Below are positions 1,432 to 50,700 of a stretch of 64,000 bases of DNA, piece by piece. This stretch comes from Protoeuglena noctilucae (lineage: Eukaryota), in the NCBI GenBank assembly GCA_958009085.1, contig OY253677.1, positions 682,001-746,000 of the forward strand, read 5' to 3'. Within the stretch, counting starts at the first letter, position 1; each line of letters begins with the position of its first letter. Below the pieces are notes generated by a model, which did not search any database, was not told the origin of the DNA, and was given only the letters and a program-made list of their open reading frames with translations. A program made the position numbers and the translations under genes.

Positions 1432-4400
1432 TCAAAACACCGACGCCCCACCCGCCCGCGCACCGCCAAACACCTCAGCGCTCCTCCCGCGCGACTCGCT
1501 GACCCCCGCATCCCCACGCTTGGCCCTAGATGACGACCCCGGTCTGTCACGCGCTGCCCCCTCCTCGCCAGTCCCAGAGCTCCCGCCCGCCTTCGCCTGG
1601 CCCGACTCAGCGCCTCGGCCCGACAGTGCGGAGAGCAGTCCTCGGGACACAGACACGGCCGCGGCCAGGAGCAGCCGCCGCTTCCATTTGGGGTGGGCGT
1701 TGCGGGTGCGACGCGCGCGCCTGATCATCGCAGCTGCAACAGGGTGGGAGGGGTGGGGTCACTCGTCGATAACTGTACATTTGCAGTGCAGTCACCGCCG
1801 CCATAGGCCTGACTTAGCACAGTAAGTGCTCACCCCACCACAAGCAGCGGTCACCGCACACCATCTTCACCCCAGCCGCTGCTCACCGCTGGGTTGGCTC
1901 ACCCCACAACAAACAACACAGCACTCATTAAGCCCAAATCAGCCAACACTCATTCATCGCTCGCCCCACCCCCTTCAAATCCCTCACCGCTGGGGTCGGC
2001 TCACCCCACCACAGACAACACAGCACTGATTCACCTCAACACAATACTCGCCCCGCCCCATGCATCCCTCACCGCTGGGGTCGGCTCACCCCACCCCATA
2101 GACATCAATCCCCACAACACTCACTAAGCACCCCCCCGTCCCCCTGCACCCCTCACCGCTGGGATCGGCAAGCCCCGCCCCTCCGCTCCCCACGATGCGC
2201 TGGAACTCCCGGAAGGCGTTCTCCTGGTTACGCATGACGCTGAGCATGCCCTTGGCCACGACCGCGTTCACGATCGCGGGGTTGAGGCCCCCGTTGTCGT
2301 AATAAAGCGTGTCCACCTCCACCGCTGGGCCGTCGGGGCGCGTGGTTACCTGACGCATCGCGCCGCACGACACCATGTCTCTGACGTCGAAGCAGCGGCC
2401 CCGGCGCTTCACGACGGCCTCGGCGGCGTGCGACGCGGCCCTGCTGATGAAGTAGACAACCGGCTGGGGGGAGGAGGGCTGCGGGGGGGGGGGTGCGGGG
2501 GATGCAGTAAGTGTGTCGCGAGGGAGGGTATGGATGGTAGAGTGAAGTGAGTGACGTGGTACTTAGACTAGCGCAGCAGGGGACAGCTCGCAGCTGTCAG
2601 TACCACCCCTGCTGTCACCCCCGCCACCCCTCACCCCCCGCGCCGCCGGCGTCGACCCCGGCCCGGCGACCGGCACGGCCTCAAACACCCTCCGCGCGTA
2701 GGTGTAGTCCCTCTGGGCGAACGGCGGCGGGAACTTGACCCGGTTGTACATGTACGCGCACTCGGGGGTGGCCGCGTCCAGCTCCGGCTGCCACCCGGGC
2801 TGAGCCGGGTCGGCCGGCAGCACGTGCACGCACAACAGCGAGTCGTCAAAGGCCTTTCTAGCCAAGTCGTCGAAATGGAAGCGGCGGTACGTCTCCAAGT
2901 CCGCGTGGAAGTACACGGAACGTGCTTTGTAGATCATGAGCCCCGCGCGCCACGGCCGGCGCCACAGCTCGTACCGCATGCTTTCGGAAGCGAACCCCGT
3001 GACCCGGTCCCACCCCTCGGAGGGAGAAGGGTGGGTTGAGGCTCTGCCCGTGCCGTCGTTGGGGCGAGTGTCCACGGACTCTGCGCCGGACGAGGCGCCG
3101 TGGGAGCCGTCGGAGCGAGGGGACGCGGCGGTGGCAGCGGTGGTAGTGGCGGCTGTGTGGGTGGCGGCGGCGTGGGTGGCTGTTGCTCCGGTGGCTGCTG
3201 TCGCACTGGTGGTGGTGGGTGCATTAGCAGCTGCTGTGTTGGCTGCCGAACGGGTGGCTGTCGCATGGGTGGCTGCACGGGTGGTTGCGTTGGCAGTCGC
3301 ATTGGCGACTGCCGCGCTAGTTGCCACAATGGCACCCGCTGTGCGTGAGGGAGAGACCGGGGATGTGACTCCCGAGCCCCTCGCCGTCTCCGTCACTCCC
3401 TCATGTCCCGTAATCAAGGGTCCCGCCGACAGCCGCGGGGGCCCAAACAGCGACCCAGGCGCCTGGGACAGCGGGTGGGGTATACCCAGCCTGACCAGGT
3501 CCGCGTCCGTCACGCCGTCTCCCAGCATGTAGCGGAACTGCAGGAGATCCGACTCGGTGATGAGGCGGGCGACGTGGGCGGGGGAGTAGCCCTCGACGTG
3601 TCGCCTGGCGCCCATGGCGTGGACGGGGGGCGATCCGGGGGAGGCGTGCTTGTGGGATGCCTGGGGGGGGATGAAGGGGGGATGGAGTTGAGGGCGGGTG
3701 GTGGAGTGACCAGGCAGGCTCGGCTTAACAGCGGCAACCCAACCACGCAACGTGCTGTGTAAGCCGAGCACAACGCATAACATGCTGTGCACTTGATGAC
3801 TGCACTGGCACCCCTTCCCACCCCTCGCCTGCGACGCCCGCTTGAGTGCCGTCCCCGCCCACTGGCTCCACCGCACGACCGCAACGGGCACCTCTCTCGC
3901 CTGCCTAACCATCGCCAGGCATGCCTCGACCGAGTAGTTGCCCAACGCCTGCACCCCGACCAGCACCACCTGCACCAGACCCAACAGTACCCCCAGCAGC
4001 GCTCCTACTAGCACCGACACCCCCGCCACCACCCGTAGCAATAGCAGAGCCGGCCACAGGCACCACACCGCCACCGCTCGCGCGACCTCCGCCGGCGTCG
4101 CGTCCGCGAAGAGCTCGTCCGCGTCGACCCACGAGTCCATCAGCAGCCACCCGAATTGTGCCGTCTGCGTGCTCGCGTCGCGTTTGCGGCCCCACCCGGG
4201 GACCGAACCCCACGCGTCCCCAGCCACCCCCGCGCAGCCCTTCAGGTTCCCGAACGCAAACCCGGAATCCACGTCCACCCGCTCTGGCGCGCTCGGGCGG
4301 TACCATTCTCCCACACATGAAACGGGGGCGGCCCGCGTCGCGGTCTCGGCGTGCCGCCCGGCTGCGGCTGATGACAGCGCCGGGGGCGACGGCGGGAGCT

Positions 4401-9831: not shown

Positions 9832-10055
9832 CGCAGTTTCCCATGTCCGCTGCTCGCCTGGTCCGCGGGTGTCGGAGAACGACGGGGAGGACGAGCACGG
9901 ATGAACGAGCTGTTTCTTGGACCCCTCACGAGCCTCTGCGCTCCCTGGTCAGTGGCGGCACCCAGATCTTGTCGAGTTCTGTGCATCGGGGTCCGAATGC
10001 TTCAATCAACTACGCCGGCAGGTAAACGTCGCCCTGACACAGGCCTCCAGCAGCT

Positions 10056-13000
10056 CTATTGGCCGAGATTCACGCTCTGACGGAGCTGATAAAACCGCGC
10101 GATTTCCGCGTCCACGGCGCTGTCGCCCGTGAAGGGCGGAGAGGCGCGCGCCTGCCCCGCCCCGCTCCCCGCGCCCGTCTCCGGCCCCCGCGCCGCGCGC
10201 GGCGCGCCCCCGATGACCCCGATGCCCCCGTAGACAGCCGACGGACCTCCACTGCCCGTCACGGCGAGCCCCGACGCGTCCGGCTGCGAGGCGCGCGAGA
10301 TCCCTGGCCGCCCTGCGCCCGGCCCCATCCCTTGCGCCCCCGCGGCCAGCCCGGCCGCCCGGGCGTACGCCGCCGCCCCCGCCACCTGCGCTGGAGTTTC
10401 CGGAGGCGGCCGCGAGACCGGTCGCGCGGGCGCGGGCCCCTCTTCCCACGCTCCCCTTGCCGACCCGCTCGCCGGCCCGGGCCCGGGCGCCGCGCCTCCC
10501 CGCGCCTGCCGGGTCATCACCGCGAGCCATTGCTCGAAGTCCTTTTGCAGCTGCGCCCGCGATTTGTCCAGCAGCATTTGGATCTGCTCGATTTCGTGCT
10601 TCGTGTCCTTGAGCGCCTCGTAGGACTCCCGGTACACGCTCTTGCGGGACTGCGGGGACAGCACGTTGTGAAGAACTGCGAGGATATTAAGTATATGAGG
10701 CGCAGACGGCCCTACACAGGACAGAGTCGGTCTCGTTCAAGCTAGTTACACCGGCCACACCCGACATCGCATCCATCACCCATCGCCTTGTGCTTTCTGT
10801 TAGCATCCACTCCCAAGCTCACCTCGATGGCCGCCCGCAGCTGCTCCTCTTCCGGCGATGGCGGCGCCGTGGCGGGGTCCTTCCCCTCCGCGATGACCGC
10901 AGCCGCTGCCTTGAGGCGCACCCCCTCCAGCTGGCCACGCATGTCCTGCGAATAGGGAGGGGGACTGGCATGGTGACACAGTGACTGTTTTTGGATGACC
11001 GGCCACGCATGGCCTGCGGGGGTGCACAGGGCAGCGGAACAGCTGCATGGGGACAGCTTTCTGTCACCCCCGCTCGCCACCCCGCATCACTCCCACACCC
11101 TCGCCCTCCCACCCCCTCCACACTCAACAACCACTCACCCCCCCACCTGTATGTCCCACATTGCCGCATCCACACCCTGACACCCCCTCCACATTCATCT
11201 CTACCCATACACACACCCTCAACACTCAACACCCCCACCCCACCCCCCCACCTGTATGTCCCTCTTGGCCGCGTTGACCTCCTGCGCCAGCGCCTTGGTC
11301 GCATCGTACTTTGCCTTGAGCATCGCCTTGTTGTCCTCGATCGCCTGGTTCTTGCGGAAACTCTTTCGGAATATCTCGAAAGCACGACTACGGTCCGCCA
11401 GGACCGACGGGTCCATCAGGGCCTCCAGCGCCGCCGCGTCAGACACACCGGTGTCAGAGACGCCTGTGTCAGAGGCGCCCGTGTCGGGGGCGCCGGGTGG
11501 GGCGGCGGGCGGGCGCACGGCGGGGCGTGGGGTGGGGTGAGAGGTCCCCGGTTCGGATCCCGCCAGCGAAACGGCGACGGTGCTGGCGGCGACGGACGCG
11601 TCGTGGGGCAGCGGCGGGCCTTGCGTATGCGCCCCTTGTGCATGGCGGTCCCTCAGCCCCCGCCCCCCCGCCTCCATCTTGCTCAGCATGCTCACGAGGA
11701 CGTTGATCTCGTTGTCCCGGGCCTTCAGCTGCGCACGGAGCTTGCGTACCTGGTCTGCCAGGGCCGCTGCGGGGGGGTGAGGGTGGGTGGGTGGGTGAGT
11801 GGGGGTGTGGGGTGCGGGGGTGGTCGGGCAGGGGTGCGGATGGGTGGCGTTTGTGAGAGCTAAAATGTAAATGGCACAGGCGCTTGGACTTGTTAGCAAT
11901 CAGTTCGGAGCAGTCATGTGCAGCGGTCATGCCATCAACCACCCCATTACACACCCACCATCACCTGTCACTGTCCTCGCCGTCTCACCATACCCCTACC
12001 CCCCACGCACACCCATGCCCCTCACCCGCGTCTCCGCTCGCCTCCCCCTCGCCCCCGTCCTTCCCCGCCACTCCCACACTCGCATCCAAACCCCCACGAC
12101 CCCCCCCAGGCCCCTCCAACGACCTCACCCCTCCACCCCCACCCCCACCACCCGCACCCCCACCGCTCCGCCCCCCACCCCCCCCCCCGACCCTTTCTCC
12201 AACAGCATGTCCTTAAATGCCTTGAAAGCCCCCCGAATGAACTCAATGGACCCTCCCAGGTTCAAAGCAGCGTCTGGGTCGACGCTCCCCACATACTGCT
12301 CCACCATCTTGCGAACATGCGCGTGCTCTTCCGACGTCAGTGGGCCGCGGTCCTCGTCGCCGCCTTTCAGCAATCGAATCTCGTCTTTCAAGTCCCGCAC
12401 CTCCTGGCGAAGCCTGGGGGGTTGGGGGGTGGCGGGTGGGGGCTGGGGAGGGGGTGAGAGGGGAGCGAAGGCGGTGGTGGGCAGATGACAGTGGGAGCAG
12501 TGCTACTAGTGCTATCGCCATGACCACGACCAAGCAATTGGCCCAATCAAGTACTGGGCAGCAGCGCCACTGTCATCCACGCTCACCTCCGTATGAGCAC
12601 CTGCGGGTCCAAGCATCTCTGGTTTCTCACATATATGATCGTTTCCCATACGCTCGTCTCACCTTCTGATCATCACTTGCGGGTCGACGCCTCTTACCAT
12701 ACCTTCCATCACAACACCCACACCCACCCACCCTCTTCTCACCTCCTGATCAGCACCTGCGGGTCCACGTCCTCGTTGACCTGCACCTTGTTGGAGATCA
12801 TGGCCACCCCCTGGGCGAAGCGGCACGTGGAGATCGACTCGTCCAGCTGTCCCGGGTCGGGGGTCACGGTGGCCACCATGGTCATGCGGCAGTTGCCGCC
12901 TAACGAGTCGCGGAGGGCCTGGGGGGGAGTGGAGGGGGAGAGAGTTTAAGATAGGGGAGTGATAGTGAGCACGGTTGTGCGGCAGTTGCCGCCCAGCAAG

Positions 13001-15368
13001 TCGCGCAGGGCCTGGGGGGGGGGGGGGGTTGAAGAGGGGAGTGTGAGAGAGCGGACAGCTAGTGAGAGTGACACTTTGGCAACCGTGGTCGTGCGGCAGT
13101 TGCCGCCGAGGGAGTCGCGGAGGGCCTGGGGGGGGTTTGTGGAAGAGGGTGATGAGAAGCAGATTGATATGCAAGAGGTGCTATGCCGAACCCCACGCAT
13201 TTATCATGGTCATCGTCATGCAGTTGCACTGCACATTCACATACACACCCCAAACACCCCCTCCACACCACACCCACCATGGTCATCATGCAGTTGCGGT
13301 AGGGCACGTGCTGCCTGCCCGTCCCCGTGGCCTTCTCCTGCAGTGCGATGATGACCTGCTCCAAGTAGTGAAGCGACAGGTTGATGTACGTCGCCTCGTT
13401 CAGAACCGACCCGGTTGCGCCCGTCTGCGGTGCGGATGAGGAGGCAAGGGATGATGCTAGTAAGAACTATTGGTTAGTAACAATAGTTGCTACATGTGGG
13501 TGGCATGCGTGCACTATGGGGGATCTACTCATGGGTGATAAGCCAGGGTAGCCATAGATGGCATCGACATCCACCCCTTATACCCACCCCTCACCTTGCT
13601 AACACGCTCGGACCCTGCCCATTCCACCCCTGCCAGATCCACCAGGTTAACAACTACATCAGTCCCTCACCTTGTTAACGCGTTCGGACCCCGCCAGGTC
13701 GACCAGTTTAATCATTCATATACAACATAACCATCCGTCACCTTGCTGACGCGCTCGGACCCCGCCAGGTCGACCAGATTGAGCTTGGACCGTCGCACCA
13801 GGTCCGACCCGTGTTGCCTGGCCTCGACGTGGATGGTGAAGATGCAGTGGGAGCGGGAGGAGGTCTCGTTCATGGCAGTGCTGAGTGGGGGTGGAGATGG
13901 GGGTTGGTTAGTGTTGAATGAGACTGGTGAAGATGCAGTGGGAGCGGGAAGAGGCTTGCTTTAACACACACCACTCACTTCGCCTCTGCCCTCTTCTTGT
14001 CCCCCTGCCACATGAGCTCAGCACCCACCCCTCCATTCATCGCATCACAGTAGCTATCAAACACACTTCATGTGCAGTACGATCATACTACCCATCCACT
14101 CACTTCGCCTCCGCCCTCTTCTCGTCCCCCTGCCACATCAGCTCCAGCGCCTCCTCCTCGGTCCCCACGCGCGTCAGTGATAAATTGCGCATCACCAGGT
14201 CGTGCTTGTCCGTCTCCTGGAAGTACACGCGGGGGAGGTCCTCGGGGTGGTACACCTGCAGGCGACGAGGGGGAGGGAAAGGGGAGTAACACGCGACGTT
14301 GACGGCGGAATATGATAGCGGTATCAAGCAAAAGGGTATGGGACAAACGCAGTGCACGCTGCTAAATCGGAGCAAGGCGAGTGGCCAGGCGTGTGCAACA
14401 TCAAAACGGGCGTGATGGAGTGATCGTGCTGTGCCGCTCGTCGCACCTGCCTCCCCGGGATGTCCTGCAGGAGGTCGTAGGGCACGTCGTTGTAGATTTG
14501 CATGTACGAGACGTGGATGTCGAAGTGCTGGTCGGTGCGCTTGGCGGCCTCGCGGAACATCTGAGAGGGACGGAAAGCGCAAGTGAGTTTGGTATCATGC
14601 TTACCGATCTTACTTGTTGCGATTTTGAACATTCGAACGAACCGCATTTATACATCTTGTGTAGATGTGCAGCGTCGCGACGGAGAGGCACGGAGTGCAC
14701 TCTCCCCACCAACAGCAGTCGCTCTCACCATGGAGATGGCGCGCGGGATGATGCCGCGCTCCGAGTAGCGCCGCTGGTCGTCGTCCTGGGAGTACCCGCT
14801 GATCGTGTACGTCTTGCCGGACCCGGTCTGGCTGCGAAGGTGGAGGGCTGTCGTCACGATGAGGCAAGAAAGACGAGACAGAAAGCACTGCCACAGTCAA
14901 GCACATACAGATAGCAACATGCTTTTTCTACACAGACACGAACTGCGCGCCATTCTCGTTTCCCTCCAAGCCCCGCCCAAGCGAGCTCCCTCACCCAGAG
15001 GCAAACACGGTGCCGTTGATGCCCTCCAGCGACCCCATGATGACATCTGTAGTCCATGGACGCAATGCACGCGTAAACTGACAAACGCATGCTGCAGCTG
15101 CGGAGTCACAGTCAGGTTAGCACGCGAGACCAAAGAAAGCCGACCATCGCACCTTTCGCCACGCGGTCGAAGACCTCCTCCTGCTTTGAGTCCGGCCCGA
15201 GGACCCCGGTGAACTTGAAGTGGTGTTCCTCGCGCTGGTTATTCACGTACCCGCGCGACTCCTCCCGAGGGATGAAGAAGGCCACGGTGCTCTCGATGGG
15301 GTCCCATGTCAGCGCCTTCGTGGCGCGCGATACGGGGCGGATTCGAAGGTAAATGTCGATGAACGACT
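10056..15368 (-). CDS. KIF6: Kinesin-9 family motor, KIF6-like (start exon not resolved)
   Basis: IDIYLRIRP...YVNNQRE...FKF; P-loop [16 protein letters not shown]; switch [13 protein letters not shown]; switch [28 protein letters not shown]...HVPYRN...[19 protein letters not shown]. The coiled-coil tail carries AFEIFRKS and [25 protein letters not shown], and ends [15 protein letters not shown]. About 12 introns. Confidence 0.92.
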
Positions 15369-16172: not shown

Positions 16173-19100
16173 ATGAGCGCGCCGGGACGGCCTGGCCCGT
16201 CGGGGGCCAGGGCCGGCGCCTCGGGCGCACCCGGTGAGTGGTGGCGTGGATGCATGAACTTCTCGTGTACACCAGGTTGGCCCCTCATCGCCGCCAGAAC
16301 AGACGTCCCGGGCCTTTCAGTGCACAACCGGGTCTCGCTCCGCGTTTCGCGGTCCCTCCTGGCGATGACGGCGATGCAACTCTGAGCAATGGTCTTATGT
16401 CGTTTGTTGCTTCCGATCGTGACGAATCTCGTTCGGCGCGAGCCCTGACGGCGCGGCCCTCGCCCCGCCCGCGCAGGCCGCCCACGCATCGACTTCAATG
16501 CGCTCAAGCCGCCTCCCGGGTACCAGCCCGGTCTGGGGCGTGGCGCGGCGGGGTTCACGACGCGTTCGGACATCGGTCCCGCGCGGTACGGCGCCGGGGA
16601 GGAGGAGGGCGGGGGCGGCCAGCCCGAGGCCCAGGAGGCACGGCAGGAGCAGCAGCCGGAGCAGCAATTCGACAAGTTCATGGGATCCGAGGCCGGGATG
16701 TTCTCGGGCGGCGTCTACGAAGAGGACGACAAGGAGGCCGACAAGGCGAGTTGAAGAGCGGACGGTTGCTGCAGCGTGTGCACGCGTGTTTGCAGGCCTC
16801 GTTCGCGCTCGCCGTGGCGCGAATCCCTGTGGGCCTTCTTCAATTATCCCAGATTTGGGACGAGGTTGAGGAGTACATGGATGAGCGCCGGCGCGACCAG
16901 CGGGAGAAGCGGCTGCGGAAGGAGGTGGAGCGCGAGCGGAAAGAGAACCCGAAAATCACCGAGCAGTTCCGGGACCTGAAGCGGCAGCTCGCGGACGTGA
17001 GCTACGAGCAGTGGGACGGCATTCCGGAGATCGGGGACTACACGGTCAAGAAACAGAAGCGGTTCGAGTCGTTCGTTCCCGGGAGCGACGCGCTTCTGGC
17101 CAAGGCAGTCGCGCAGGGGCAGGTCGCGGCGCGGGAGGTGCGTATTGCGCTTTATTTATGCGATTACTTGCGCACGGGGGCTCTCCGGGACGCGCTCGCG
17201 GATTCCGCTGCTGCACGCAGTCGGGGCGTGTCGGGCCTGGAGACGCCCGCGGGCCCGGGCGTCAACCAGGACCTCACGTCGATTGGCGCGGGGAAGAAGA
17301 CGATGCTCGCGCTCAATCTGGACAAGATGGGCGACGACGGTGGGTCCCGGGCGCAGCGCACGGGTGCACGTGATGTACTCGCAGTGCGAGCGCAGCAGGA
17401 AGCAACTGCCTTATTGCTTCGCCCTCGCAGTGGAGGGCAAGACGACGATCGACCCGCAGGGCTACATGACTGCGATGGCGGCCACTCCGCTGGCGAGCGC
17501 GGACATCCAGGACATCAAGCGCGCCCGGCAGCTCTTCAAGTCCGTCATCTCCAGCAACCCGAAGAACCCGGCCGGATGGGTCGGCGCTGCGGTGAGAGAC
17601 GTTTTCAATTTATCTTATTGTGACGTCGATATTACCAATACTACTACTGCGGGCGAACAGGGACAACCAGCACCGCACGGAGTGACGCCTTGCGGGGCAA
17701 CACCCTGCCCTTCCTCGCTCGCAGCGCCTGGAGGAGCACGCGGGCAAGCTCCAGGCGGCGCGCAACATCATCATGGAGGGCGTGGAGAAGTGCCCGAACA
17801 GCGAGGACGTGTGGCTGGAGGCGGTTCGGCTGCAGACCCCCGACAACGCCAAGGCGGTCCTGGCGAGGGGCGTGGCGGCCAATCCATCCAGCGTGCAGCT
17901 GTGGCTGCAGGCGGCGAAGCTGGAGAGCGAGACGGCAGGTGAGGTTTGGTGGGAAGCTGGATCATGCATGGAGGCATGGCTAACATGCCGGTGGTGTTGA
18001 CTTCTCTGACCATGCATGGTGCCATGGTCAACGTGCCTCATCACGCACCAGGAACTCCTAGTGTAGAATGCACAACGATCACACACACATACACCATGTC
18101 CTTCGTTCTTTCCCCCCTCCGCAGCCAAGGCCCGCGTGCTCCGCAAGGCCCTGGAGCGCATCCCCGCGTCGGTCTTGCTGTGGAAGGCAGCTGTTGATAT
18201 CGCACCTGAGGACGATGCCCGCATTCTGCTGTCGCGCGCGGTGGAGTGCTGTCCTCTGCACGCGGAGCTGTGGCTGGCGCTCGCAAAGCTGGAGGTGAGA
18301 GGAGTATGGGGGTGGGGAGGGATGCGTGTGATGTGGCTGCGTGCTTCTGTCTGCGGTGCCTTCTCTATTACAATACCGTCTCTCACAGACCTACGACAAC
18401 GCCAAGAAAGCCCTTTTGATTGTGACTGTATGTACGATAAATACTATATTACAACCACACCCTCTCCATCTCCCGCAGACCTATGATAATGCCAAGAAGG
18501 TCCTCAACCGCGCGCGCCAGGCGCTCCCCACCGACCGCAGCATTTGGCTGGCGGCGGCCAAATTGGAAGAAGCTCAGGGACACGAGGGCATGCCCACCAA
18601 GATCATTCCCAGGGCTATTAAGAGTTTGGAGGCCAATGGGGTGGTCATCGATAGGGACCAGGTGGGGGGTGGGTGTGTTGAGAGTTGATTGACAGGGAGC
18701 AGGTGTGAGAAGGGGTGTGCATAATGGTCCCATGTGCCACAGTCACGCCCATCTGCTCATACCACATCACCTTATCTCACTCACCCACTCCCCTTTCTCT
18801 ACAGTGGCTGGAGGAGGCCCGCATCTCTGAGTCCCACGACCCCCCCATGACCGAGACGTGCCGCGCCATCGTGGCAGCCGTCATTGGTCACGGAGTGGAG
18901 GCAGAAGACAGAGAGGCGACGTGGATGGGGGACGCGGAGGAATGTGCCAAGGCGGGGGCCATCGAGACGGCCAGGTGATTTTTCTATATCTATATCTATG
19001 GTCCATCTACGAGCATGCCCTGACCACATATCACATTGACTATAATTACGTTTATTTATAATGCATATTTATTTATACTCTTTTCATATCGCATCCACTC

Positions 19101-21326
19101 TCCAGGTCCATCTACGAGCACGCCGTGACGACCTTCCCCGCCAAGAAGGGCGTGTGGATGAAGGCTGCACAACTGGAGAAGAGAAATGGAGACTATGGCA
19201 GACTGGAGGCCATACTGGCAAGAGCAGTGCAGTTCTGCCCACAGGTGAAGAGGGGGGGTGGGGCCTTGGTCTGGGTGGGTGTGTGTGGGAAGGGGTGGGG
19301 GAGGTGGGAGTGTGATGGGCGCGGAGCGTTGATACACACAACAATGAGCTGTTACTTATAATAACTAACAAGTTTTCATCATAACTCACTCCTACCACCC
19401 CCTTCCCCTTAGGCCCACACGCTGTGGTTGTTGTGGGCCCGCGAGGCGTGGCGCACGAAGGGCGATGTCCACCAGGCGCGTCAGATTCTCGACAACGCAT
19501 TCCGATCGAATCCCAACTCGGAGGACATCTACCTGGCCGCGTTCAAGCTCGAGGCGGAGGTGAGGGTGATGGGAGTATGATTGGTAACTGTAGTTATGGT
19601 TGTGAGCGAAATGGACATCTATGTCTGGCCGCGTTCAAGCTGGAGGCGGAGGTGAGGGTATGGGCATATCAGGGAATGCATTGGTTGGGTACCCACGACA
19701 GCACCCTCACCTCACCACCCTCGTTCCGTCGCCAACACCCTCACTACCAATCACACCACCACCCCCCATACCCCCCCCGCATCCTACCAACACTGTTACC
19801 ACCTTTTCTCTCATTCCCACAGAACGGCGAGACGGAGCGTGCCCGCCTTATCCTGGCTCGTGCGCGCGACACCCCCGCCACCTCCACGCCACGCATGTGG
19901 ATGTACTCTGCGAAGCTGGAGAGGGATTCTGGCAAAGCGGCGGAGGAGAGGGCAATACTCACGCAGGCGAGTGATTGGGTGGGGGTGGGGTGGGGTGACT
20001 GTGTTTGGTGGGTAATAGGGTGGTGGGGTGAGTGTGTGTGGGGTGGGAGGAGAGGGCCATCAGCTTTTTTTCCCTTACATCATACATTGTTACAGCTTTG
20101 CTTTTATATCCAGGCCGTGGACCGCTTCCCCGACTTCTGGAAGCTGTGGCTGATGGCAGCGCAACTGGAGGAGCGGGAGGGGCAGACCGACGCCGCCCGA
20201 AAGACCTACGCCAGAGCGGTGCTGGCGTGCCCCAAGAGCGTGGGCGTGTGGAGGGCGTACGCCGCTTTCGAGGCCAGGGGAGGGGCGTTCCCCAAAGCGA
20301 GGGCGATTTTGGATATGGCGCGGCTGCGGGTGCCGAAGGACGCCGGGCTGTGGCTGGCCACCGTGAGGTGAGTCGAGGGTTTCAATTGGGCAAGTATGTG
20401 ATTGTGAGGAGTGTGTTGTGTGGGGGTAATCAAGCGCTGCACCCCTCACCCTCACTGACACCCCCACTCCCACCCTCACCGCCACCCTCACCCTCACCAC
20501 CCCCCCACCCCTCCGCAGAGTGGAGCTGGCGTCCGGGGACACCAAAGCCGCGGACGTGCAACTGGCCAAAGCCCTGCAGGAGTGCCCCACCTCCGGGCAG
20601 CTGTGGGCGCAGGCGGTGGCACTCGCGTCACGCCCCCAGCGCAAGTCCAAGTCGGCTGAGGGTCTGAAGCGCTGCAACAACGACCCTCACATGCTGTGCG
20701 CGGTGGCGCAGCTGTTCGTGCAAGAGAGGAAGCTGGAGAGGGCCCGGGACTGGTTCAACAAGTCGGTCGTGGGGAACCCGGGTGAGCTGAGGGGTGGGTT
20801 GAGCATAATAAGCGAATATGAATGGTTGTGATGGGAAGTGAGGTGAGGGACTGGTTCGACAAGTTTGTGGTGGGGAACCCGGGTGAGGGGTGATGCGGAC
20901 TACTGGGGATGGTTACGACAGCAAGTCGAAGGTTGGCGACTGCTGGGCCCACTGTTAGTACCCCACCCACCACCACCACTCCTACTCTCCCCACTCAGAC
21001 ATCGGCGACCACTGGGTCCACTGGTACCGCTTTGAGCTCATACTCAACTAACATGTTCTAACAATGGTATAACCAATTATCACTACTCTTACTCTCTCCC
21101 CCACTCAGACATCGGCGACCACTGGGCCCACTGGTACCGATTCGAGCTCAGGCACGGCACCCCCGACCGCGCCGACAAGGTGAAGGCCGCATGCGTGGCC
21201 CAGGAGCCCCGGCACGGTGAGTTCTGGCAGAGGGTGTCGAAGGAGCCGGGGAACGCCAAGCTGACGACGGAGGAGGTGCTGGTGAAGGTATGCAACAGCT
21301 TGGACGAACCGGCGCCGATTGGGTGA
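16173..21326 (+). CDS. PRPF6: Pre-mRNA processing factor 6 (U5-102K / STA1), HAT-repeat protein
   Basis: [76 protein letters not shown], many HAT repeats, and C-terminal [13 protein letters not shown]. About 14 introns, two of them GC-AG. Confidence 0.96.
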
Positions 21327-22309: not shown

Positions 22310-24635
22310 TCATCCGCTCCCCCACGCCCACCACCGCCGCTTGGGCTTGGAACCTGGGGGCATGGGAAGGGGCACATGTGGTACTGCATGTGACATGGTG
22401 TGATAGCCGAGAACCAAGAAGGAAGTCCCATCTCCTGACCCAAAACCGCCAGCCACCGCACCCTCTCACACCCAATACCCCCCCACCCCCACCCAGCCTC
22501 ACCGTCAGTGATGGACGGCGTCCGGGCGAGCACCTGCGCCTGCTCGACCTCCTTCTGCACCTGTTGCAAGTCCTTGCCCTTGCTCGCGGCCCTCTGCGCG
22601 TCGCGTTCCTTGATGCGCCGCTTCAGTTCCTTCTTTCGCCTCACAATCTCCTGGTACAGCCGTTCTCGGTACTCCTGGATGGTGAACTTCGTGTTGTCGT
22701 TGATCGGGATCGTGATGACGCGCGAGCACCGGGGCTCGGTGGCGGGATCGTGGAACTGCGCGACGTAAGGGTGCGACAGCGCCTCCTCGGCCGTCATGCG
22801 CTTGTCCGGGTTGAAGACGAGCAGCTTGCGCAACAGGTCCGTCGCCTCCGGGCTCGCGTTCGGGAACATGTGCTCCAGATTGCGCTGCTTGGGCGTCGGC
22901 AGCTCGTCGAGCATGGTCATGGCGAACGACGAGCCGACCGCGTCGATGTCCGCCTTCTTGGGGCGGCCCGTCACCTCCAGGATGCGGTCCAGCTGGTTCT
23001 GAGATAGGGAGGGAGATGGGTGAGGGGATGAGGTGATGAGGTGGTGCGGGTGTTGCGGGTCGTGGATTTCAATACTGCATTCGGCTGCGAGGTAAGGGCC
23101 ACTTGACTGGCTCTGAGAGGGGTATGAGGTGATGAGATGGGCGAGGCGATGAAGTGGGTGGGGGTGTGTTGCAGGTCGGGGTATCCCTACCCAATGCCTG
23201 GCCACAGAGACCACGTCGCCGCTTCAGGACAACTTGTGGTGATGCCTTAGGACAGCAGCAGCACTGGACAACTCAGCTCCCCACAAACACTCTGCTGTAG
23301 AACAACTCAACTCCCCACACACACTCACCATGGTGCTGCTCCCCGGGAAGATGGGCTTGCCGCTGAGGAGCTCCCCCAAGATGCACCCGCAGCTCCACAT
23401 ATCGACGCCCCTTGTGTACCTGGTGGATCCCAGGAGGATCTCCGGAGCACGATACCACCGCGTCGCGACGTAGTCGGTCAGGACCGGGTTCGTGGCCGTC
23501 TCGCTCTCGATCTGGGCGATGGAGCGCGCTAGGCCGAAGTCCGCCAGCTTGACCTGGCACTCCGAGTTGAGGAGCAGGTTGCTCGGCTTGATGTCCCTGC
23601 GCGGGCGTAGAGGGGACCAGGGCGTGTTCGGACGGGCGGAGGGGCGCGACGGGCGCAAGGACGCGCGGGGATGGGGGAACGGAGCGCAGGGAGCAGGGAA
23701 GGCAGGTGCACTGCGGGAGAGGAAGGGAGAGAGCTCTGCGGACCGTCGCGGGCGTCGGAGCCGGACGCGGATAGTTACCGGTGCAGAAGCTCCGCGGAGT
23801 GCATGTACTTGAGGGCCTTGAAAAGCTGGTACATGATGTACTGCTTGTGGATGTTCTCCAGGATGTTGGCGCGAATCACGGCGTGCAGGTCGGTCTCCAT
23901 GTACTCGAAAACCAGGTAGATGTCGCGATCTGCGGGAGTGCGGGCGCAGGGAGCGCGGTCAGCGTCGGGCGGGCGCGAGGAGGGCGACGCCGTGCCAAGG
24001 TGGCGACGCCGCGCGAGGGCGGCCCCGGCGCGGCACGGCGGAGCCCCGCGCGCACCGTTGTCCGCCTTCAGGACATTGAGGAGTCGGATGATGTTCTCGT
24101 GGGCGGTCAGCTCCTGGAGGAACATGATTTCGCGGAAGGTGCGCTGCGCATCGGTAGAATTCTGAAAGGCGTCAAAGATCTTCTGCGGAGAGGGCGCGGA
24201 GCACACAGAAACCTCGCGAGAACGACACTCGATCGATGGAGGGGTGTCGGGACGCCCAGGAACGAGCGGGCCGGTCGCGGGCGCCCACGACATTACTGCG
24301 TCGCGCGCCGTGCATCGAGCGGCGGGGTCGCCGGGCGGTCCCGGCTAGCCGCCTCGCCTTGAGTGCTACCGTCGCGCCGGTCTTGCGGTCGATGGCCTTC
24401 CACACGATCCCGTACGCCCCCTTCCCGAGCTTCTGAAGTATCTCATACTTCTTCAGCACGTGCTTCTCGACCTCCTGATCGAGCGAGACCAGGAGACGCG
24501 TCAGGCGTTGCATAGAAATCAGGCCGGGGGCGGATTCCCCGGATCCTAAGCTCCGCTAGCGCGGGCCTGTCCGCGTCAGCGCGCCTGCGCCAAGAGCTGC
24601 GCCTGTGACCCGCCGCCCGCGCGCACCTCCGCCAT
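22310..24635 (-). CDS. MAPK15: ERK7/MAPK15-type MAP kinase (TDY activation loop)
   Basis: [93 protein letters not shown]. The first coding exon is 9 nt (24635-24627). The last exon ends [14 protein letters not shown]. Confidence 0.93.
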
Positions 24636-28787: not shown

Positions 28788-31700
28788 TCAATTCATGTCA
28801 ACGTCGACACCCACGCCACTTCCCTCACATCCCAATCCCTCACGCAATGCCCCCGCCCCCCACAGGTCCCTGCCCGTCCCTGGAAGACCGGGCGAGGGAC
28901 CCCGTCCTCTCCGCATGCCTCGCGCCCGTCAACGTCACCATGATGCCTGGCAGGGCCACCTCTGTCGTCGCCTCCACATGCGCACGCTTCTGGGGGAGGG
29001 CGGGAAGGGAGCAGTGGTGGGTGGGAGGTGGGTGGTGGTTGGTGGGCAGTGGTGCGTAGTGGTGGGAGGTGGATGGGGGCGACAGAGCGGCAGGGGCGAC
29101 GGGGAGATGGAGCGGTGGTGGGTGGTGGATGGGGGCGACAGAGTGGCGGCGTTCGCATAGAACATCGCATTGCCATAGTCAACGTCCAGGTCTGCTGCGC
29201 TCTGAACGCCGTGCCTGCAAACGATCCTTTTCTCACTTTGACACACATATGCTTGCCCCTCAGGTCACATGTATACTGCCCTGTTCTCAGAGACACAGAC
29301 ACATGCGTGCCCCTCGAATCACCTGCATACAGTCCTGCTCTCAGATAGACACAGACGCATGCGTGCCCCTCCAATCACCTGTATGCGGTCCTCTTCCTCC
29401 TGTGAGAGACGCAGCACCTCCGCCAGCACGGGCAGCAGTGTGGTGGACGGGGGGATGACCCCCGTGGTCAGGCCCTGCACCAGGATGGCGCGCAAATACG
29501 TGGCGTCCAGGCCGTGGGCGTTGCGCTGGTGCTCCTGGCGAAGCTGCAGTGGAGGAGCAGGGGCGGCGGCGGTGGCGGGGGCGGTGGAGATCGCGAAACG
29601 CGACGTGGCGCTGCATCGGCTACGCATGCGAAAGCTGTGCAGTACATCATGTGTGAATGATAGACATGTAAAGTGTTTACATACACATTCATGAAAAGGC
29701 CAAGAAAGAACAGGGCAGTCTACTAGTCTCGTCTCAAGTAGTAATATCGGTGCTGGTCACGAGTGCAAGAGGACCTCGTGCCCTGCCACGGCTGCCGCGG
29801 CTGCGCCCTCGCCTGTGCCTGCAGCGCTGCGACTTGCTTCCTGGCTTTGTCCAGCTCCGAGGCAGACTCGGAGGCGGGTGCTGACGCTGCGGCCGCGCCA
29901 CGCAGACCCCCGGCGATGGTCGACAGCATGCTCTTGCTGCTGTTGGAGGGGCTGGGGGGCTCTGCGGGGGGAAAGAGAGAGAGAGATGGGTGCTATCATT
30001 GCTGTGACAGAGGCAACCAAAGCGTTGGTGCAGCTCCTAAGGGCTCTTTCAGTCGTCCTGTTGCACTCGCCGTGCTTACATCCCACACCCACTCCACCCA
30101 CCCCACACCCGCACCACCCTCACCCTTGCGGCTGTGCTCGGGCATCTCGGGCGGCGTGCCGTGCGGGTCGGCCTGGGTTGACGCCCGGGGCACCACCGCG
30201 GCCTCTGGGGGAGGGGCAGGCACGCGCACACCGTGGCTCCTCAGCAGGCCCTCCAGCCTCTCGATGTGGCGGTCCTTCTGGTCCATCATCGATCGCGCGC
30301 GCCACCTGCATTTACATATCATGAAGCACATATCATGCACATCTAAGTGAAGCACTGGCGATGGTTGTGCGCGGGCGCGAGGCTGTCCGTGGGTACGGGT
30401 AGGAGTGTTCGATGGTTGGCGTGTTGGCGGCAGGATGGTTGGCGATGGTCGAGTGGAAATGTGCAGGTAGTGTAATGGCAGCTGTTGCGCTCGGTGGGAT
30501 TCGAACCCGCGACCCCCGCCATCGCACCTGACCGAGGCCAGGTCCTCCCGGAGCCTGTCCAGCCTCTCCCGGTGCTCCTCCGCGTCCTCCTGGGCATTCG
30601 CGAGCTGGCGCAGGCGCTCCGACTCCGCCTCCGCCACCGCGCCCGCACGGAGCAGACTGCGTGGGAGGGCGACGTGCGTGGGCATGCATGGTAGGGTGGG
30701 CATGGCAGGGTGGTGGGCATGCATGGCAGGGTGGTGGACATGCACGGCAGGGTCACATGCATGTGTGCATCCCAGCCTGTTTGCACTGTTGCACTGCTGG
30801 GCGCTGTGCGTGGCATCACCCCACACCCCTCCCCCGGCCTCACCGCGCCTCCAGCGCCCCCCTCATCTCCTCCATCCGCTGCACCATGGCCTCCTCCCTC
30901 GCCGCCAGCTCCCTCTCAATCACGCCCAGACGCGCCCTTAGAGCCTCGACCTCCCGCGCCCGCTCCGCCGCGCGCCCCTCCGCCGCCCGCGCCCGCCCCT
31001 CGGCCTCCTCCACCCTCCGACTCATCTGCGCTTCGACTGCGTCCTGAGCCTCCGCCACGCGGCCCTGTGCCTCGGCCTCTGCCGCCTCCTCCACCCGCTC
31101 CACCAGCCGCCGCACCGTGCGGGGCCAAAGGGATCGATTCCCAGAGTCCCCCGCGTTCAAAAGCTGGTCCAATTCTTCCAGGAACGCCGCGCGGGCCTTG
31201 GCGCTCTTGCGGCGCTCGTCCTCCAGGGCACGAGCTGCGGGGGGGGTGGGGTAGGGTGGGGTGGGGGTGAGGGGCGATGAGGTGAGAGAGCAGCTGGGGA
31301 GTAAGGCGGGAGGTGTAGTCATAACGCCTGCCCTGGCAGCCCTGTCCAGCATCACCCGCCACCGTCACTGCCCTGTGCCTGCCCTCCCTGTCCCATCCTC
31401 TCTCTCATACTCTCACCCGCTTTCGTCGGCACCTCCACCCTCACTTCCCCTCCCTGTCCCCATCCTCTCTCTCATACTCTCACCCGCTTTTGTCCCCACC
31501 TCCACCACCATCGCCTTCCCCTGCCCTCCCAACCCCCATCCCCTCCCCACCACCACCCTCACCCGCTTTCGTCGCCTCCTTCTCCGCCACCCTCAGCCGC
31601 GTCTCCAGCGCGGTGATGGCCTCTTGTGCTGCCGCCAGCTCCGCCTGGGCCGCGTCCCTCGCCGTCTCCAGTGCGTGGATCTGGGACGACGCAGCGCCCA

Positions 31701-39654: not shown

Positions 39655-40950
39655 CATCACCATGGCGTCAGGTCGTGATGCCGGTAGTAGGAAGGACGCG
39701 GCGTGGTTGGGAGAGCTCTACACAGCCCTGAAAGACTAATCGACAGTGAAATCATGGAACGCTTTGAACTCGTCAAAGACGATTTATCAGGCCTAATGTG
39801 ACGCGACCTGGCCGCGACACCAATGCTGATGCGTCGCCCGGAGTTGCGGACAAGCCCGAGAGGTCGCCTGCTGCGCCCGTCAGCCTACTGCCGACGCCAG
39901 GAGCGGGGCCGGGTGTCAGGCACCCTCTGCTCACACGCTCACCCTTCGGAGCGGAGTGCGCTGGCCTGGATGCGAGGCAGGCGATCTGCGGAAGCCATCA
40001 CAGGCCCAGCATTGCCCGGCCTTGCCAGCCTTGCAACGCGGCCATAGCACGTTTGCCACGTGGGGCGGGCGGTGTGGGCCCGCTTGCCCGGCCGACGCCG
40101 GCGCCGTGGGGTTGGTCGACCATGACCGTGCCCATGACCATGTGGAGAGACATGACTCCGCTGGGCCGCCCTCTGGACGCGCGGCAGAGCCCCTTCTGCC
40201 TGTCGGAGCGATTCAGCAGGGGCAAGCGTGCTCAACAGATGCGGACCCACGGTCGGTGACTGGGAGTGGCGCGGACCATGTCGAGCCCAACGCAGAGGAC
40301 AGAGCCCTCGGGAAGTCCAGGGCACAGGGGACAGCATGCAGGATGCCATGACGAGCACTCGTGCTCTGGCTGACTACGACGGTGCCACAGGAGGCCTCTG
40401 CGCTGCTGGTTATCGTAGCAGCCATGCCATCTCATACAAATATGTCTCACAAGCCAGCGCCTGCTGTGCTGCAAGCTGTACATGTGCTAGCTGTGGACTG
40501 CTTCAAGGCTCGCACGTGCCGCTGCTGCTGCAGCTCTGCGGCTGCCGTACGCCTCCAACCCAACGCATTTGCAGCTTGTCCTGTGCACCTCGTGTAGCCA
40601 CCCTACGCCACCCGCCATGCCTGCACCCATCTACCCTTCTGCCCAGCATGCCTGTGCCTCCTTCAACCATCCACACGCACGCTGCACCATGCACCAGCAC
40701 GTGGGCATCCAGGCCAGCCCTGCAGCAGCTCTTGGTCCCTCCGCGCTGCCAGTGGCTTGGCCTAGCCGACGCCTCTGCGGCCCTCTCCTGCACGCATCAG
40801 TATACAGGGCGCTCATGGTGAGCAGACCAGCCGCGGGCACTGCTATTGCCGCCATCCTCAACATGCATGGGCCCACCGGCGTGGATGGCGTCATGCACGA
40901 CGAGACTATGCCAGGCTCACCTCCATGCATGCGCCCCGCAGTGACCCTCC

Positions 40951-42960: not shown

Positions 42961-44030
42961 CGCTCACTGCAGCACACACCGACGGCGCCCAGGGTCGCCG
43001 GTCGGGGCTGCAGCGACGTCTCATGACAGCAGTGACATCTTACGATTCGCGATACACGACTATAACCGGATCCTGACCGCAATCGCGGCGGCGCAACAGC
43101 CTTTGCTCTGCACCCTGCACACAGCTGCGCAGGAGAGCCCCCCGAGGTGCGCTGGGTCTACTGCCGATACGAAGCTCGCCTACAAAGTATACTCAACCCT
43201 TGGACAGGTCGCGCTGCTTTGTTAAGGTCGCCATTCACGCGTAATTGGGCGGGTTCCACTTTCCCCCGCGATGTGCCCTTACGTTTAACGCAAAGCCTCC
43301 CCGCTCACCCGCTGTCTACCATACCACACCGGATATGCACCGCATCATCCACACCCGCACTCACCCCTCGCCTGCCTCTGCCTCTCTGCCCGGTCCTGCG
43401 TAACCGCTGAATTAATGCGGCGTAAATGCGCAGTCGCTGGCCCGATGCGACGCGACCTGATCCACGACACCGATGCGAGTACATCACAGCGACTGCCCCG
43501 AGGTGCTGACGGGCCCGAGAGATCGCCTGACTCAGGCAGCGCCCGTCAGCCGGACGGTGCCAGGAGCAGGGCCCAGATCATCGATGAGGTCCTGCCGCGC
43601 GGTCCGCAGCAAGCTGTGACGATCTGGATGGGAGCTGAGCGATCGGACGAAGCCACCACCAACCCAGCACCGGCCGGCCTCGCCACCCGCATTTGGCCAC
43701 AGCACGTTGCCAGGGGCCAACTGTGCGGGCCCGCCTGGCCGGTCGTCGGTCGCCGCCGCGGGGTCGGCCGACAATGTGGGGGTCTCTGAGTGCCACTGTT
43801 GCGTTGATGCATCGACGAGAAAGCCCCGTCGATCCTTTTGGGGGATGCTGCAGCAGGTGCGGGTCTCACTTCAACTTGTGCATGGTTGGTTCCTGCCAGG
43901 AGTGACTCGAGACGCCCGGTGCTTTAGACACGATGCGGCCATCCTCCGCAAGGCGGCCATCTCCCTCGCTAAGGAATTGTTGAGCCCCATCGCACTGCCC
44001 ATGTTGACGGCCCTGCACAAAGCCCCTAGC

Positions 44031-47719: not shown

Positions 47720-50700
47720 ATGTCTGGCGTGGATGCGTACCAGCAGGCCTGGTTCAACTTGGCCGATGAAGACAACGACGGAGTCGTCAGCGGGGCCGAG
47801 GCGGTGGCCTTCTTCACGCGCTCTGGGCTCCCCAAGAAGGCGCTCGCCGAGGTGCACTGCAGCGCCGGATCGGGCCCCGCAGAGGTCTTGTCACCTCGCC
47901 AGTAGGGCACGGAGACGTTGGCATAAGCGACCAAATGCGACAGATGCGCCTCGGCCGGGCCCGCGGCTGTCCCGTGCCTCTCGGTGCGTCTCCCCCACCG
48001 TGCGCCAAGCCTCGACCCGCCCGGCGCCGCAGGTGTGGGAGATTGTGTCGCAGGGGAAGAACGGTTTGGATCGGCGGCAGTTCGCGAGCGCCCTGAGCGT
48101 CATCGCGCTGGCGCAGCAGTCGGGCGGGTATATCGACCGTGGAAAGGCTGTCAAGGTCATCTCCGGCCTCGCCCCGCCCCCTCCGCCGCCGAAAATGGAC
48201 GGCTTGGAGGTCCCCGGCGCCGCTGAGCCCGCCAAGGCCCCCGTGGGGATGGCTTACTCGCCAGCGCCGGTGCGACCCCGCCGCAGCAAGGCTCATGCGC
48301 CGCGCCTCGCCTGTAGCCCACCCATCACGCCCGCCGGTCCACCGCTGCGCCTCGCTCCCGCTCCACCCGCGTGACCTCCGCCCGCAGGCGCCTTCCTCTC
48401 CCCCGACCCAGTCTTTCAGCGCCTCCCCGGGCGGCCCCTCATTCGCTCCCATGTCATCACATGACGAGGCTCGCTACGTGTCGTGGTTCGACCGCCTGGC
48501 CTCCGGCACCTCTTCTGTGCAAGGCTCCGTATGCTTTGGGGAGTTTCTCAACACAGGTGACGGCATGGCGTGCGTGAAACGCTGGCAACGGACGGGGCAT
48601 GAGAAATGGAACGCACGTGCTGACGGGGTCTGTGTGATGTTGCGCATGCCTGATTCTTCATGCTTGTAACACATTGGTTGTCTGTGCACCTATGGTACCC
48701 TTCTCACTTTGCCCATCATCTGCCCACCCATCGTCCTTACACCCCCCAGGCCTCAGCAAGGCTCATCTGAAGGACATCTGGGCAGCAGTGGCGGGAGATC
48801 AGGGGTACCTGACTCGGCAGCAGTTCATACAGGCGGCTTATCTAATCGACCACGCCAGGCGCGGGGGGTCACTACCCGCGACGCTAGCCCCTGACTTCCC
48901 GCCACGCACCGGGCAGGCCACAGGTGCGGCGCGCCTCGCGTTTGCCTCCGCGCTGCACGTTAATTCATTCGCCAGAGCTGTAGCTGTGTTGGTCTGTACC
49001 CGTCGCTGTGTCATCGCCCTTGCCCACCCTGGTCCTTCACGCCCCAACCACCACCCTGCGTCCCCTTTTGTACAACCCCGACCCCTGCCTCAGTTCCCAC
49101 CTAACCCAACTCCCTCTTTCTACCCCTCTCGCCCCCCGCAGCGCCCCAGCCCTACCAAGCCGCGAGCGCTACCCCCGGCCCCGGCCTGTCCGCCCCCCTC
49201 GGCATCCCCTCTGCGTTCGCTGAGCTGACCACGGCTCTCCCCGAACGATTCACGCGGCCGCCTGAGGCTAAGGAGTTTGTCTTCGCCCCCTCGGCGCCCG
49301 CCCCGTCTTCTTCGCCGGAGTTCGCTTCTCTTTCGGCCGGCGAGCGTCGTCAAGTGCAGGGGGCAGAAGAGGCGACGGCTAAGGCGGAGCGGGAATACCA
49401 GCAACAGCAGCACATGGCGACGGTGCTTAAGTGAGTGTATAAGAGAGGGGTGTACCAGCAACAGCAGCACATGGCGACGGTGCTCAAGTGAGTGTATGTG
49501 TGAGAGAGGGGGAGTACCATCAAGTTACCATGAAGTGTGAATGTGACGCACCATGCTTGCTTTGGTATGCAGGAGGACTGGTACCGTACCTCCACAGCCA
49601 TAGTGTGGATCACGACTTTCCATGCTCGTTTGCGTTCTTGCAGGAACAAGGAGTACTGGTACCGTACTCACCTCCACAGCCATAGTGTGGATCATGACGC
49701 ATCACGCTTGTCCTCGCTTGCAGGAACAAGGAGGACTGGTACCGTCGGGCGATGCAGGACCTCCGCCTCTACCAGGCCCGCATGGACTCTCAGGTGGTCG
49801 AGGTGCAGGCGGCGGCCAGGCAGGTGGAGGCAGAGACCAAGGCACTCGAGGCGCGGTACCAGCAACTGCTGCAGGGCACGCAACAGGTGGGTCGCTGGGG
49901 GTGGATGCGGGGAGATGTGGGATGGGCCGAGTGATGACTGCTGCAGAGCGCGCATGAGCTCCCCTCCTTCCCACCTCGCAGCGCCAGCAGCAGGCCAGCC
50001 CCGTGCTGTCGGCCATGCAGCGCGCGCAGGAGGGCCGCGCGGCGTTGCTTGCGAAGATTGCTGAGCTGGAGCAGCGCGCCCAGGACGACATGCGGGTGAC
50101 GCAGGAGGACGTGGCGAGGGTGGAGGGAGAGAACCGCAGGCTGATGGATGAGGTGAGGGATGCTTAGTGACTGCACTTCAAGAGGGCATGCAGTTTGGGA
50201 GATGAGGTGCGAGGGAGGCACGCACACCTTGCAGTGTGGGGCATGGGGTGTGGGGTGCTGAAGGGAGGACTGCGTGGATTGTTGTGCAAATGCTACTTCA
50301 TGCTACCTTGTGACTTGCAACCTGTCGCCTTCTCTGCACCGCGCGCATCCACCTTCCCTGGTACTAACCAACCCCTGTTCTTATTTTCCCAGGTCCTTCG
50401 ATTGGAGTCCCATGTCCGTGAGATGACGTCGACGAAGGATGAGGCGGAGCGTCGGTACAACGAGACGAGGAGGCAGAAGGAGCAATTGACGCTGAACCAG
50501 GCGGCGGTGGAGAGGGATTTGGAGAGGTACACGCAGGAGGTGAGGGGGCGGAGGGAGAGTCATTCAAATGGGGCAGAAGGTGGGGTGAGAGTGGGTTAAT
50601 GGTGAGGCTGGGCTGAGCTTAAGGCTCTCAAGCATCCGCACCCTCATCACGATGTTTGTACATGGCAACTTATACATTGTCACAATTTACAACTTGCGGT

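Follow-up and report, generated by a model that had tools for sequence, protein, structure and literature searches.

The 64-kb window analysed here (64,000 nt of contig OY253677.1 from Protoeuglena noctilucae) comes from a GC-rich marine green alga, a chlorophyte, and contains genes whose introns harbor short, diverged copies of the exon edges that adjoin them. We refer to such an intronic copy of an adjoining exon edge as an echo. The analysis centers on two adjacent genes, one for a KIF6-like kinesin, whose nearest match is a pedinophyte protein with 65% identity, and one for PRP6, whose nearest matches in a protein search are green-algal and plant proteins. These matches do not support an assignment to Micromonas. 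Among the names assigned by the first-pass annotation of this sequence, kinesin and protein kinase agree with Pfam and PRP6 with its homologs, whereas 'START' and 'EH' found no Pfam confirmation on the pieces tried.

The introns are of the GT-AG type, with GTGAG-like donors and C-rich acceptor tracts; GC-AG splice sites occur in two PRP6 introns (16746 and 19967; donors GCGAGT). For PRP6, 14 introns were derived from P0001, a 931-amino acid protein from a 3019-nt Joint Genome Institute (JGI) contig, which forms a cluster of one member and is 99% identical to the PRP6 of the window; the end of intron 3 was placed by eye. Given the length of this protein relative to its contig, the source must be a spliced transcript. 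The eight introns in the motor region of KIF6 were placed by tblastn with the ortholog P0057 and by reading of the sequence. At a G run in PRP6 (17221-17226), the window seems to have one G more than the P0001 frame allows, which is either a strain difference or a homopolymer error of the assembly. The G+C content of the window is about 65%, with a dip to 57–63% at 12–20 kb, and this lowest-GC part (12000-20000) houses the echo-rich and intron-rich KIF6 and PRP6 genes. Some of their introns have AT-rich cores, e.g., 18975-19105.

Exon-edge echoes in the adjoining introns

For each of the 44 exon edges of KIF6 and PRP6, 60 nt of exon with the adjoining 8 nt of intron were compared by alignment with the intron that the edge touches, and the 21 other introns served as the null (924 comparisons). 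Echoes were found for 10 of the 44 edges, comprising 14 copies and 15 alignments with scores of 24–86. The null maximum over the 924 non-adjacent comparisons was 28, and it was exceeded by 14 of the 15 echo alignments (scores 31–86). A weak match in PRP6 intron 1 (score 20) was discarded as low-complexity. Over the whole window, ungapped local direct repeats numbered 100 versus 9 in mirror-repeat controls at a score of at least 15, and 62 versus 0 at a score of at least 20. Besides the KIF6 motor region and PRP6, echoes were identified in the 3' part of KIF6, the 'EH' gene (one donor and two acceptor echoes), the 'START' gene (three donor echoes), a golgin-like gene (two) and a kinase gene (one; Table 1). 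With about 24 found in total, the reported presence of more than 20 echoes in six genes is borne out, as is their reported position inside the intron that touches the copied junction. Thus, the echoes exist and adjoin their source edges.

All echoes are in the sense orientation. The copied edges span 23–63 nt, each with at most one splice site, and the exons themselves measure 139–263 nt. Donor echoes lie 50–160 nt downstream of the live donor and acceptor echoes 45–210 nt upstream of the live acceptor; where both kinds share an intron, the donor echo precedes the acceptor echo (PRP6 intron 14 and KIF6 intron 13881-14103). The splice sites had been described as usually kept in the copies. On the donor side this stood, since GT is retained in all donor echoes examined (KIF6, PRP6 and other genes), but on the acceptor side the C-rich tract and AG are present in only six of nine echoes; among the remaining ones, that of PRP6 intron 9 has TG, and two begin inside the exon. 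A weak donor-side echo without GT lies at 13205-13227 in KIF6 intron 12919-13277, the donor echo at 13588-13648 is interrupted by an insertion, and the copy at 13925-13954 stops short of the acceptor. The repeated units are about 57–125 nt long, mostly not multiples of three, and form arrays of two to four, some with unrelated filler. Regular-period arrays occur in KIF6, 'START', 'EH' and the golgin-like gene, with periods of 82 and 67 according to Tandem Repeats Finder (TRF) and offsets of 57, 78-82, 92, 105 and 156.

Table 1. Exon-intron junctions with echoes in the window (coordinates of the whole stretch; scores are followed by the null in parentheses).
Locus	Position	Strand	Live edge	Echoes	Scores (null)
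'START' donor junction	1882..2176	-	exon end ~2157-2176	three units, ~2066-2098, 1978-2010, 1882-1912, each ending in GT	
KIF6 3' part	11110..11272	-	donor edge 11252-11272	11147-11167; 1 synonymous, 2 non-synonymous differences	
KIF6 intron 12414-12742	12582..12780	-	donor edge ends 12743	donor, 12657-12693 and 12582-12611	49, 45 (19)
KIF6 intron 12919-13277	12919..13277	-	acceptor edge starts 12918	acceptor, 13077-13133 and 12970-13019, with C-rich tract and CAG	84, 65 (18)
KIF6 intron 13425-13741	13425..13780	-	donor edge ends 13742	donor, 13663-13709 and 13588-13648	69, 44, 24 (18)
KIF6 intron 13881-14103	13881..14160	-	13834-13863 (source of exon-internal copy)	donor, 13971-14033; exon-internal copy, 13925-13954	86, 55 (21, 28)
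PRP6 intron 7 (18295-18478)	18386..18414	+	exon starts 18479	acceptor	33 (18)
PRP6 intron 9 (18975-19105)	19000..19027	+	exon starts 19106	acceptor side, TG in place of AG	41 (20)
PRP6 intron 11 (19560-19822)	19613..19659	+		donor with GT, 2-nt insertion	70 (21)
PRP6 intron 14 (20782-21108)	20847..21040	+		donor, 20847-20887; acceptor side, 20935-20957 and 20991-21040	62, 31, 85 (18-20)
Kinase gene intron	22993..23181	-		~96-nt repeat of acceptor-proximal intron plus weak exon-start echo; Pkinase match	
Golgin-like coiled-coil gene	31382..31580	-	donor edge near 31561-31580	two 67-nt units (31382-31506), each a short exon-end copy plus GT	
'EH' gene intron	49396..49745	+	exon starts 49724 (acceptor side)	donor, 49453-49497 (1 difference in 45); acceptor, 49570-49587 and 49640-49665	

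The runs that contain the window come from a culture and from marine metagenomes and metatranscriptomes, and the same arrangement is found in other sequencing runs. Logan contigs of run X1, made from a culture, and of run X4, a marine metagenome in a different study, are colinear with the window over 12198-17225, 17252-20442 and 20517-27051 and over 13018-21309, respectively, with about ten single-base differences; the divergence among the window, X1 and X4 amounts to no more than about 0.1%. The introns have single-copy read depth, and the contigs are unbroken there. Since independent contigs run colinearly through the echoes, these are not mis-merged haplotypes of the present assembly. Contigs of a metatranscriptome run (X9) are colinear with the DNA and retain the introns, and a further run (X13) yielded short identical pieces only. 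Among the joints listed from run contigs (15 of 59), there are no splice joints over KIF6 or PRP6. A contig of lower depth, present in X1 and X4, links the P-loop and switch-II coding pieces of a kinesin and nothing else (joints 13771>14801 and 14836>14990). It was considered as an allele and rejected, since it matches conserved kinesin motifs only, and it is probably an intron-poor paralogous kinesin from elsewhere in the genome.

The proposal that echoes are alternative exon ends still in use is disfavored by several observations. The transcript-derived P0001 uses only the live junctions, i.e., those contiguous with exons. Gaps that break the frame (not multiples of three) occur in 4 of the 15 alignments, use of the downstream donor in 'EH' or PRP6 intron 14 would lead to a stop within a few codons, the 'START' echoes contain an in-frame TGA, and some echoes have no splice site; the unit lengths given above point the same way. 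Translation of the echoes is therefore unlikely, and rare use followed by transcript decay may occur.

The introns themselves have G-rich 5' and C-rich 3' ends that are partly complementary. Among the echo-bearing introns, complementary stretches that include the donor were found at 19553-19586 / 19745-19778 and 12921-12938 / 13257-13274, and in PRP6 intron 11 the live donor and the echo donor are each complementary to a stretch close to the 3' end of the intron. This complementarity could pair the splice sites or reflect a transposon-like origin of the introns. No long-range similarity between introns was found within the 64-kb window, where the sole long-range repeat is a gene family: 26747-28660 and 40902-43779 are inverted copies, 74–89% identical, of a family with 144-nt tandem coding repeats. 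The X1 and X4 read depth at 27.5-28.8 kb is about 3–10 times the single-copy level, so this family is multicopy in the genome.

Proposed repeated duplication across exon-intron junctions

The explanation that we hold with moderate confidence is that the echoes are non-coding remains left by short local duplications that recurred across exon-intron junctions. Units of about 57–125 nt would be duplicated again and again at a junction, correct splicing would be open only to the copy joined to the exon, and the other copies would remain in the intron and decay there. The duplications would fall in lineage-specific introns, as the same genes are uninterrupted in a compact relative. The mechanism may be slippage during replication, unequal exchange, or templated synthesis in the course of break repair, and the echoes themselves would be neutral.

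The explanation draws support from the regular periods and offsets, from the uniform orientation and placement of the echoes, from marks of non-coding decay (frame-breaking gaps, the 'START' TGA and lost AG or GT) and from the exclusive use of live junctions in P0001. The range of ages among the echoes is also consistent with this explanation. Divergence extends from 1 difference in 45 nt (the 'EH' donor echo) and 3 in 42 (the PRP6 intron-14 acceptor echo) up to about 19%, and a continuum that starts near identity to the local exon makes new echoes look like copies of that exon. The young units are homologous over their full length, intron part included (KIF6 11110-11272, the golgin units and the 'EH' units). 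For example, in KIF6 11110..11272 divergence is about the same in the exon part of the unit as in 40 nt of its intron part.

The lineage specificity of the introns was assessed with a contig, L001, from a related compact alga with a GC content of 69%, convergent genes 80 nt apart and 74% identity in the PRP6 protein; the presence of genes on both strands marks it as genomic DNA. Its positions 9857-12697 encode PRP6 residues 21-930 in one open frame (window 16173-21323), and a second gene, at 3-890, is colinear with four exons of the window at 34999-36076 and lacks the gaps seen there. Every PRP6 intron of the window is thus absent from this relative, either by gain here or by loss there, as far as two genomes tell. 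The PRP6 search returned only P0001 (99%) and a relative at 75%, with no intermediate.

L001 and the orthologs P0002, P0004 and P0057 also allowed some of the differences between echo and exon to be assigned to one side. Most of the polarizable non-synonymous differences fall on the echo side. With L001 as the outgroup, derived silent changes on the live exon include TAT, GAT, AAT and CGG, together with one derived replacement (Leu to Val), and the three silent C-to-T changes in the PRP6 intron 7 comparison lie on the live side as well; the echoes carry derived silent AAA, CTT, CAT, CTG, GTG and TTT and four replacements. This silent-site polarization covers few codons, and a preference for codons ending in G or C, which the two species share, biases it. 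At a conserved motif of KIF6 (12883-12885), the window has ATG (Met), X1, X4 and X9 have ACG, and two echoes as well as the pedinophyte ortholog have Thr (ACG/ACA). The Thr shared by all of these other sequences at 12884 indicates that the Met of the window is a recent CpG transition private to its strain.

Codon-position pattern of the differences and competing origins

The first-pass annotation attributed protein-level constraint to the echoes on the basis of about 28 synonymous versus 8 non-synonymous codon differences from the live exon. Our recount over 157 complete codons of the KIF6 motor-region and PRP6 echoes preserved the direction of this bias and reduced its size, with 32 synonymous versus 19 non-synonymous codon differences, 3 of the 19 being located at a doubtful G-rich alignment margin. 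By codon position 1/2/3 there are 10/12/36 differences over 172/170/167 sites (a third-position share of 62%), and the proportions of synonymous (pS) and non-synonymous (pN) differences are about 0.30 and 0.05, respectively (pN/pS 0.17). The premise of that claim, namely that neutral duplicates should differ mostly at non-synonymous sites, is wrong as a null because the live exon in every comparison is constrained. A live exon that changes only synonymously is expected to produce much of the synonymous bias even when the echo is neutral. We therefore simulated a neutral echo against a live lineage restricted to synonymous changes (4000 runs), using positions 1 and 2 to calibrate the rates. This corrected null expects 12/11.9/18.3 differences by position, as compared with 10/12/35 counted for this test, a third-position share of 43%, and 14.7 synonymous to 24 non-synonymous differences.

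A group of observations goes beyond what plain junction duplication predicts and weighs against it. The observed shares were reached in 0.8% (position) and 0.2% (synonymous) of the 4000 runs, P values that treat the calibrated rates as exact. With the sampling error included, the rate ratio of position 3 to positions 1 and 2 is 3.35 (confidence interval, CI, 1.97–5.7; P = 0.028 against the limit of 2), and when one echo per junction is counted, the differences are 6/9/24 (P = 0.017). At third positions, transitions and transversions number 12:2 in two-fold codons as opposed to 6:12 in four-fold ones (Fisher P = 0.0045), and the four-fold spectrum is unlike the one seen at positions 1 and 2 (P = 0.003). 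In families with two echoes, each echo has its own silent-site changes. Hypermutation at CpG was rejected as the cause of the third-position excess, as CpG transitions number 3/5/7 by codon position. Altogether, it looks as if the path that separates an echo from its exon had a constrained part 2–3 times longer than the neutral part, which a plain duplication tree disallows. The anatomy of some copies is also at odds with simple duplication: in older echoes only the splice motif and the exon-derived core, 81–97% identical, can be recognized and the 40-nt intron flank is near random (8–22 of 40), a contrast that calls for flanks highly prone to indels or for a constrained core, and the 13925-13954 echo is not tandem, with an exon-internal source and unmatched flanks.

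These tests were applied post hoc to the same sequences in which the pattern had first been noticed, and they cover two adjacent genes with 58 differences. Beyond the KIF6 motor region and PRP6, the echoes show no codon bias, with few differences to count (1/1/1 in the KIF6 3' part, 1/0/1 in 'EH', and short 'START' and golgin pieces). AT-biased decay as a source of the excess was likewise rejected; it is not seen at positions 1 and 2, where GC-to-AT (9/171) and AT-to-GC (12/171) changes balance each other in the manner of neutral intron-like DNA. A coding-like signature beyond the corrected null remains, namely a roughly two-fold third-position excess, weaker than reported. The claim of protein-level constraint on the echoes thus retains this residue and loses the large part of the bias that silent-only change on the live side explains; the residue itself lies outside the duplication model. 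Chance or unmodelled rate heterogeneity, diverged functional templates, and selection on echo cores remain as its candidate sources.

A broad alternative is that the echoes are fossil exon edges that diverged mostly as working coding sequence, being either retired edges or fragments captured from diverged haplotypes or cryptic sister lineages. We regard it as doubtful. Its more specific form, in which the echoes were templated by or recombined from a deeply diverged functional gene copy (a haplotype, a cryptic sister lineage or a lost homeolog) and then decayed neutrally for a short time, is unlikely, even though it accounts for a constrained path longer than the neutral one. The contrast between pS and pN, nine G/C interchanges at third positions against about 1.7 expected, transversions confined to places where these are silent, and the echo-specific silent changes in two-echo families would all follow from such a source. 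The per-echo silent divergence seems, by arithmetic rather than a formal test, to fit one common value, and the strongest cases lie within the lower-GC 12–20 kb. However, no diverged second copy is seen at the 0.1% level of difference between the window, X1 and X4, and the PRP6 search gave nothing between the 99% protein and a relative at 75%. Furthermore, the youngest echoes hardly differ from the exon beside them, and tandem repeats of regular period are what local duplication typically leaves.

Another reading is that selection keeps the echo cores because they act as decoy splice sites or as helper modules, recruiting or buffering splicing factors in introns with G-rich and C-rich ends; this is distinctly unlikely in our estimation. 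It would explain the retention of GT in all donor echoes examined, with motifs that match the GTGAG consensus as well as the live donors or better, and the far better conservation of cores than of flanks. For instance, the cores of the first two 'START' echoes agree without a difference over 30 nt, non-exon bases included, and the remainder of the unit has diverged. The frequency of the echoes (10 of 44 edges) and the complementary partners near the intron 3' end, including those of the live and echo donors of PRP6 intron 11, fit such a role as well. On the other hand, a splicing role predicts no three-base periodicity of change, several echoes have no splice site or stop short of the junction, and half of the introns in the same genes are echo-free.

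Indirect selection through gene conversion between echo and exon was rejected on our own arithmetic: a silent divergence of about 30% needs conversion to be about as rare as mutation, and with a diversity of about 0.1% the selection would be far weaker than drift. In gene-conversion models, the ratio of non-synonymous to synonymous rates (dN/dS) also cannot fall below 0.5.

Similarity of an intron to its adjacent exon is a known signature of tandem exon duplication. It is very improbable, however, that the echoes are remnants of tandemly duplicated whole exons, once mutually exclusive, which diverged under protein constraint and then decayed. Coding-like divergence would be expected of such remnants, but only edges are present, with upstream copies representing the start and downstream copies the end of the same exon (e.g., around KIF6 exon 12743-12918). 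In addition, each copy has one splice site and not two, the 57–125-nt units are shorter than the 139–263-nt exons, and doubled kinesin motor core motifs would not be tolerable in the protein. Finally, an assembly artefact (mis-merged haplotypes or mis-polished repeats) is scarcely credible given that short-read contigs from two other studies reproduce the echo stretches colinearly, the sole hint of it being a possible 1-nt mismatch to P0001 near 17221-17226.

Meaning of the echoes and comparison with known systems

In sum, the observation is confirmed with a smaller bias than reported, the interpretation given in the first-pass annotation is partly supported, and the echoes are best seen as junction duplications with a coding-like signature left over. 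Duplicate junctions inside introns pose a problem of splice-site choice, and the echo donors, in appearance no worse than the live ones, have persisted to about 30% silent divergence. The lineage appears to have gained many introns compared with its intron-less relative, and the echoes may be scars of the origin or growth of its introns. If the third-position excess holds genome-wide, introns would record diverged functional alleles or contain exon-like modules under a selection not described so far. If it fails, the echoes would provide a clear example of constraint on one partner mimicking constraint on both duplicates. Were the fossil-edge alternative true, introns would be a readable archive of past or foreign alleles, and the 12-21 kb region would mark an ancient haplotype divergence, such as that of a mating-type-like region. 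In the accessible portions of the literature on introners, intron gain, duplicated splice sites and Pedinophyceae genomes, we found no description of the junction-echo pattern.

Several known systems share some of its features. Tandem exon duplication with mutually exclusive exons likewise produces introns that resemble exons and divergence that looks protein-constrained; unlike in that system, the copies here are 20–60-nt edges with a single splice site, and P0001 uses the live junctions only. Error-prone break repair by polymerase-theta end joining creates same-orientation copies of tens of nucleotides within about 100–200 nt, sometimes with filler and sometimes not in tandem. The echoes resemble its products in size and orientation, but this type of repair offers no reason for codon-periodic divergence or kept splice motifs. 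The target-site duplications of introners comprise a few bases, whereas the echoes extend over 20–60 nt and form arrays.

With the introners of marine picoalgae, as presented in the accessible part of PMC3879977, the introns of the window share their lineage-specific occurrence in a compact GC-rich marine green alga and the inverted complementarity of intron ends. Unlike introner families, the introns here are unique within the 64-kb window, with single-copy depth and unbroken contigs. The accessible part of another introner paper (PMC4540971) makes no mention of tandem or target-site duplication or of the flanking exon.

Another related process is intron gain by tandem duplication of exon sequence with a proto-splice site, which, in the part of the account available (PMC2891723), yields duplicated splice signals with one copy inside the intron. 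The echoes resemble it in that short duplications occur at borders of coding and intron sequence here too. In that account, as far as it was available, the new intron repeats the start of the downstream exon at its beginning and the end of the upstream exon at its close. By contrast, in the window the copies of the upstream edge are located in the 5' half of an existing intron, 50–130 nt inside it and with their own GT, whereas the copies of the downstream edge occupy the 3' half with their own AG, the copies form arrays of two to four, and GT is not what the downstream exons start with.

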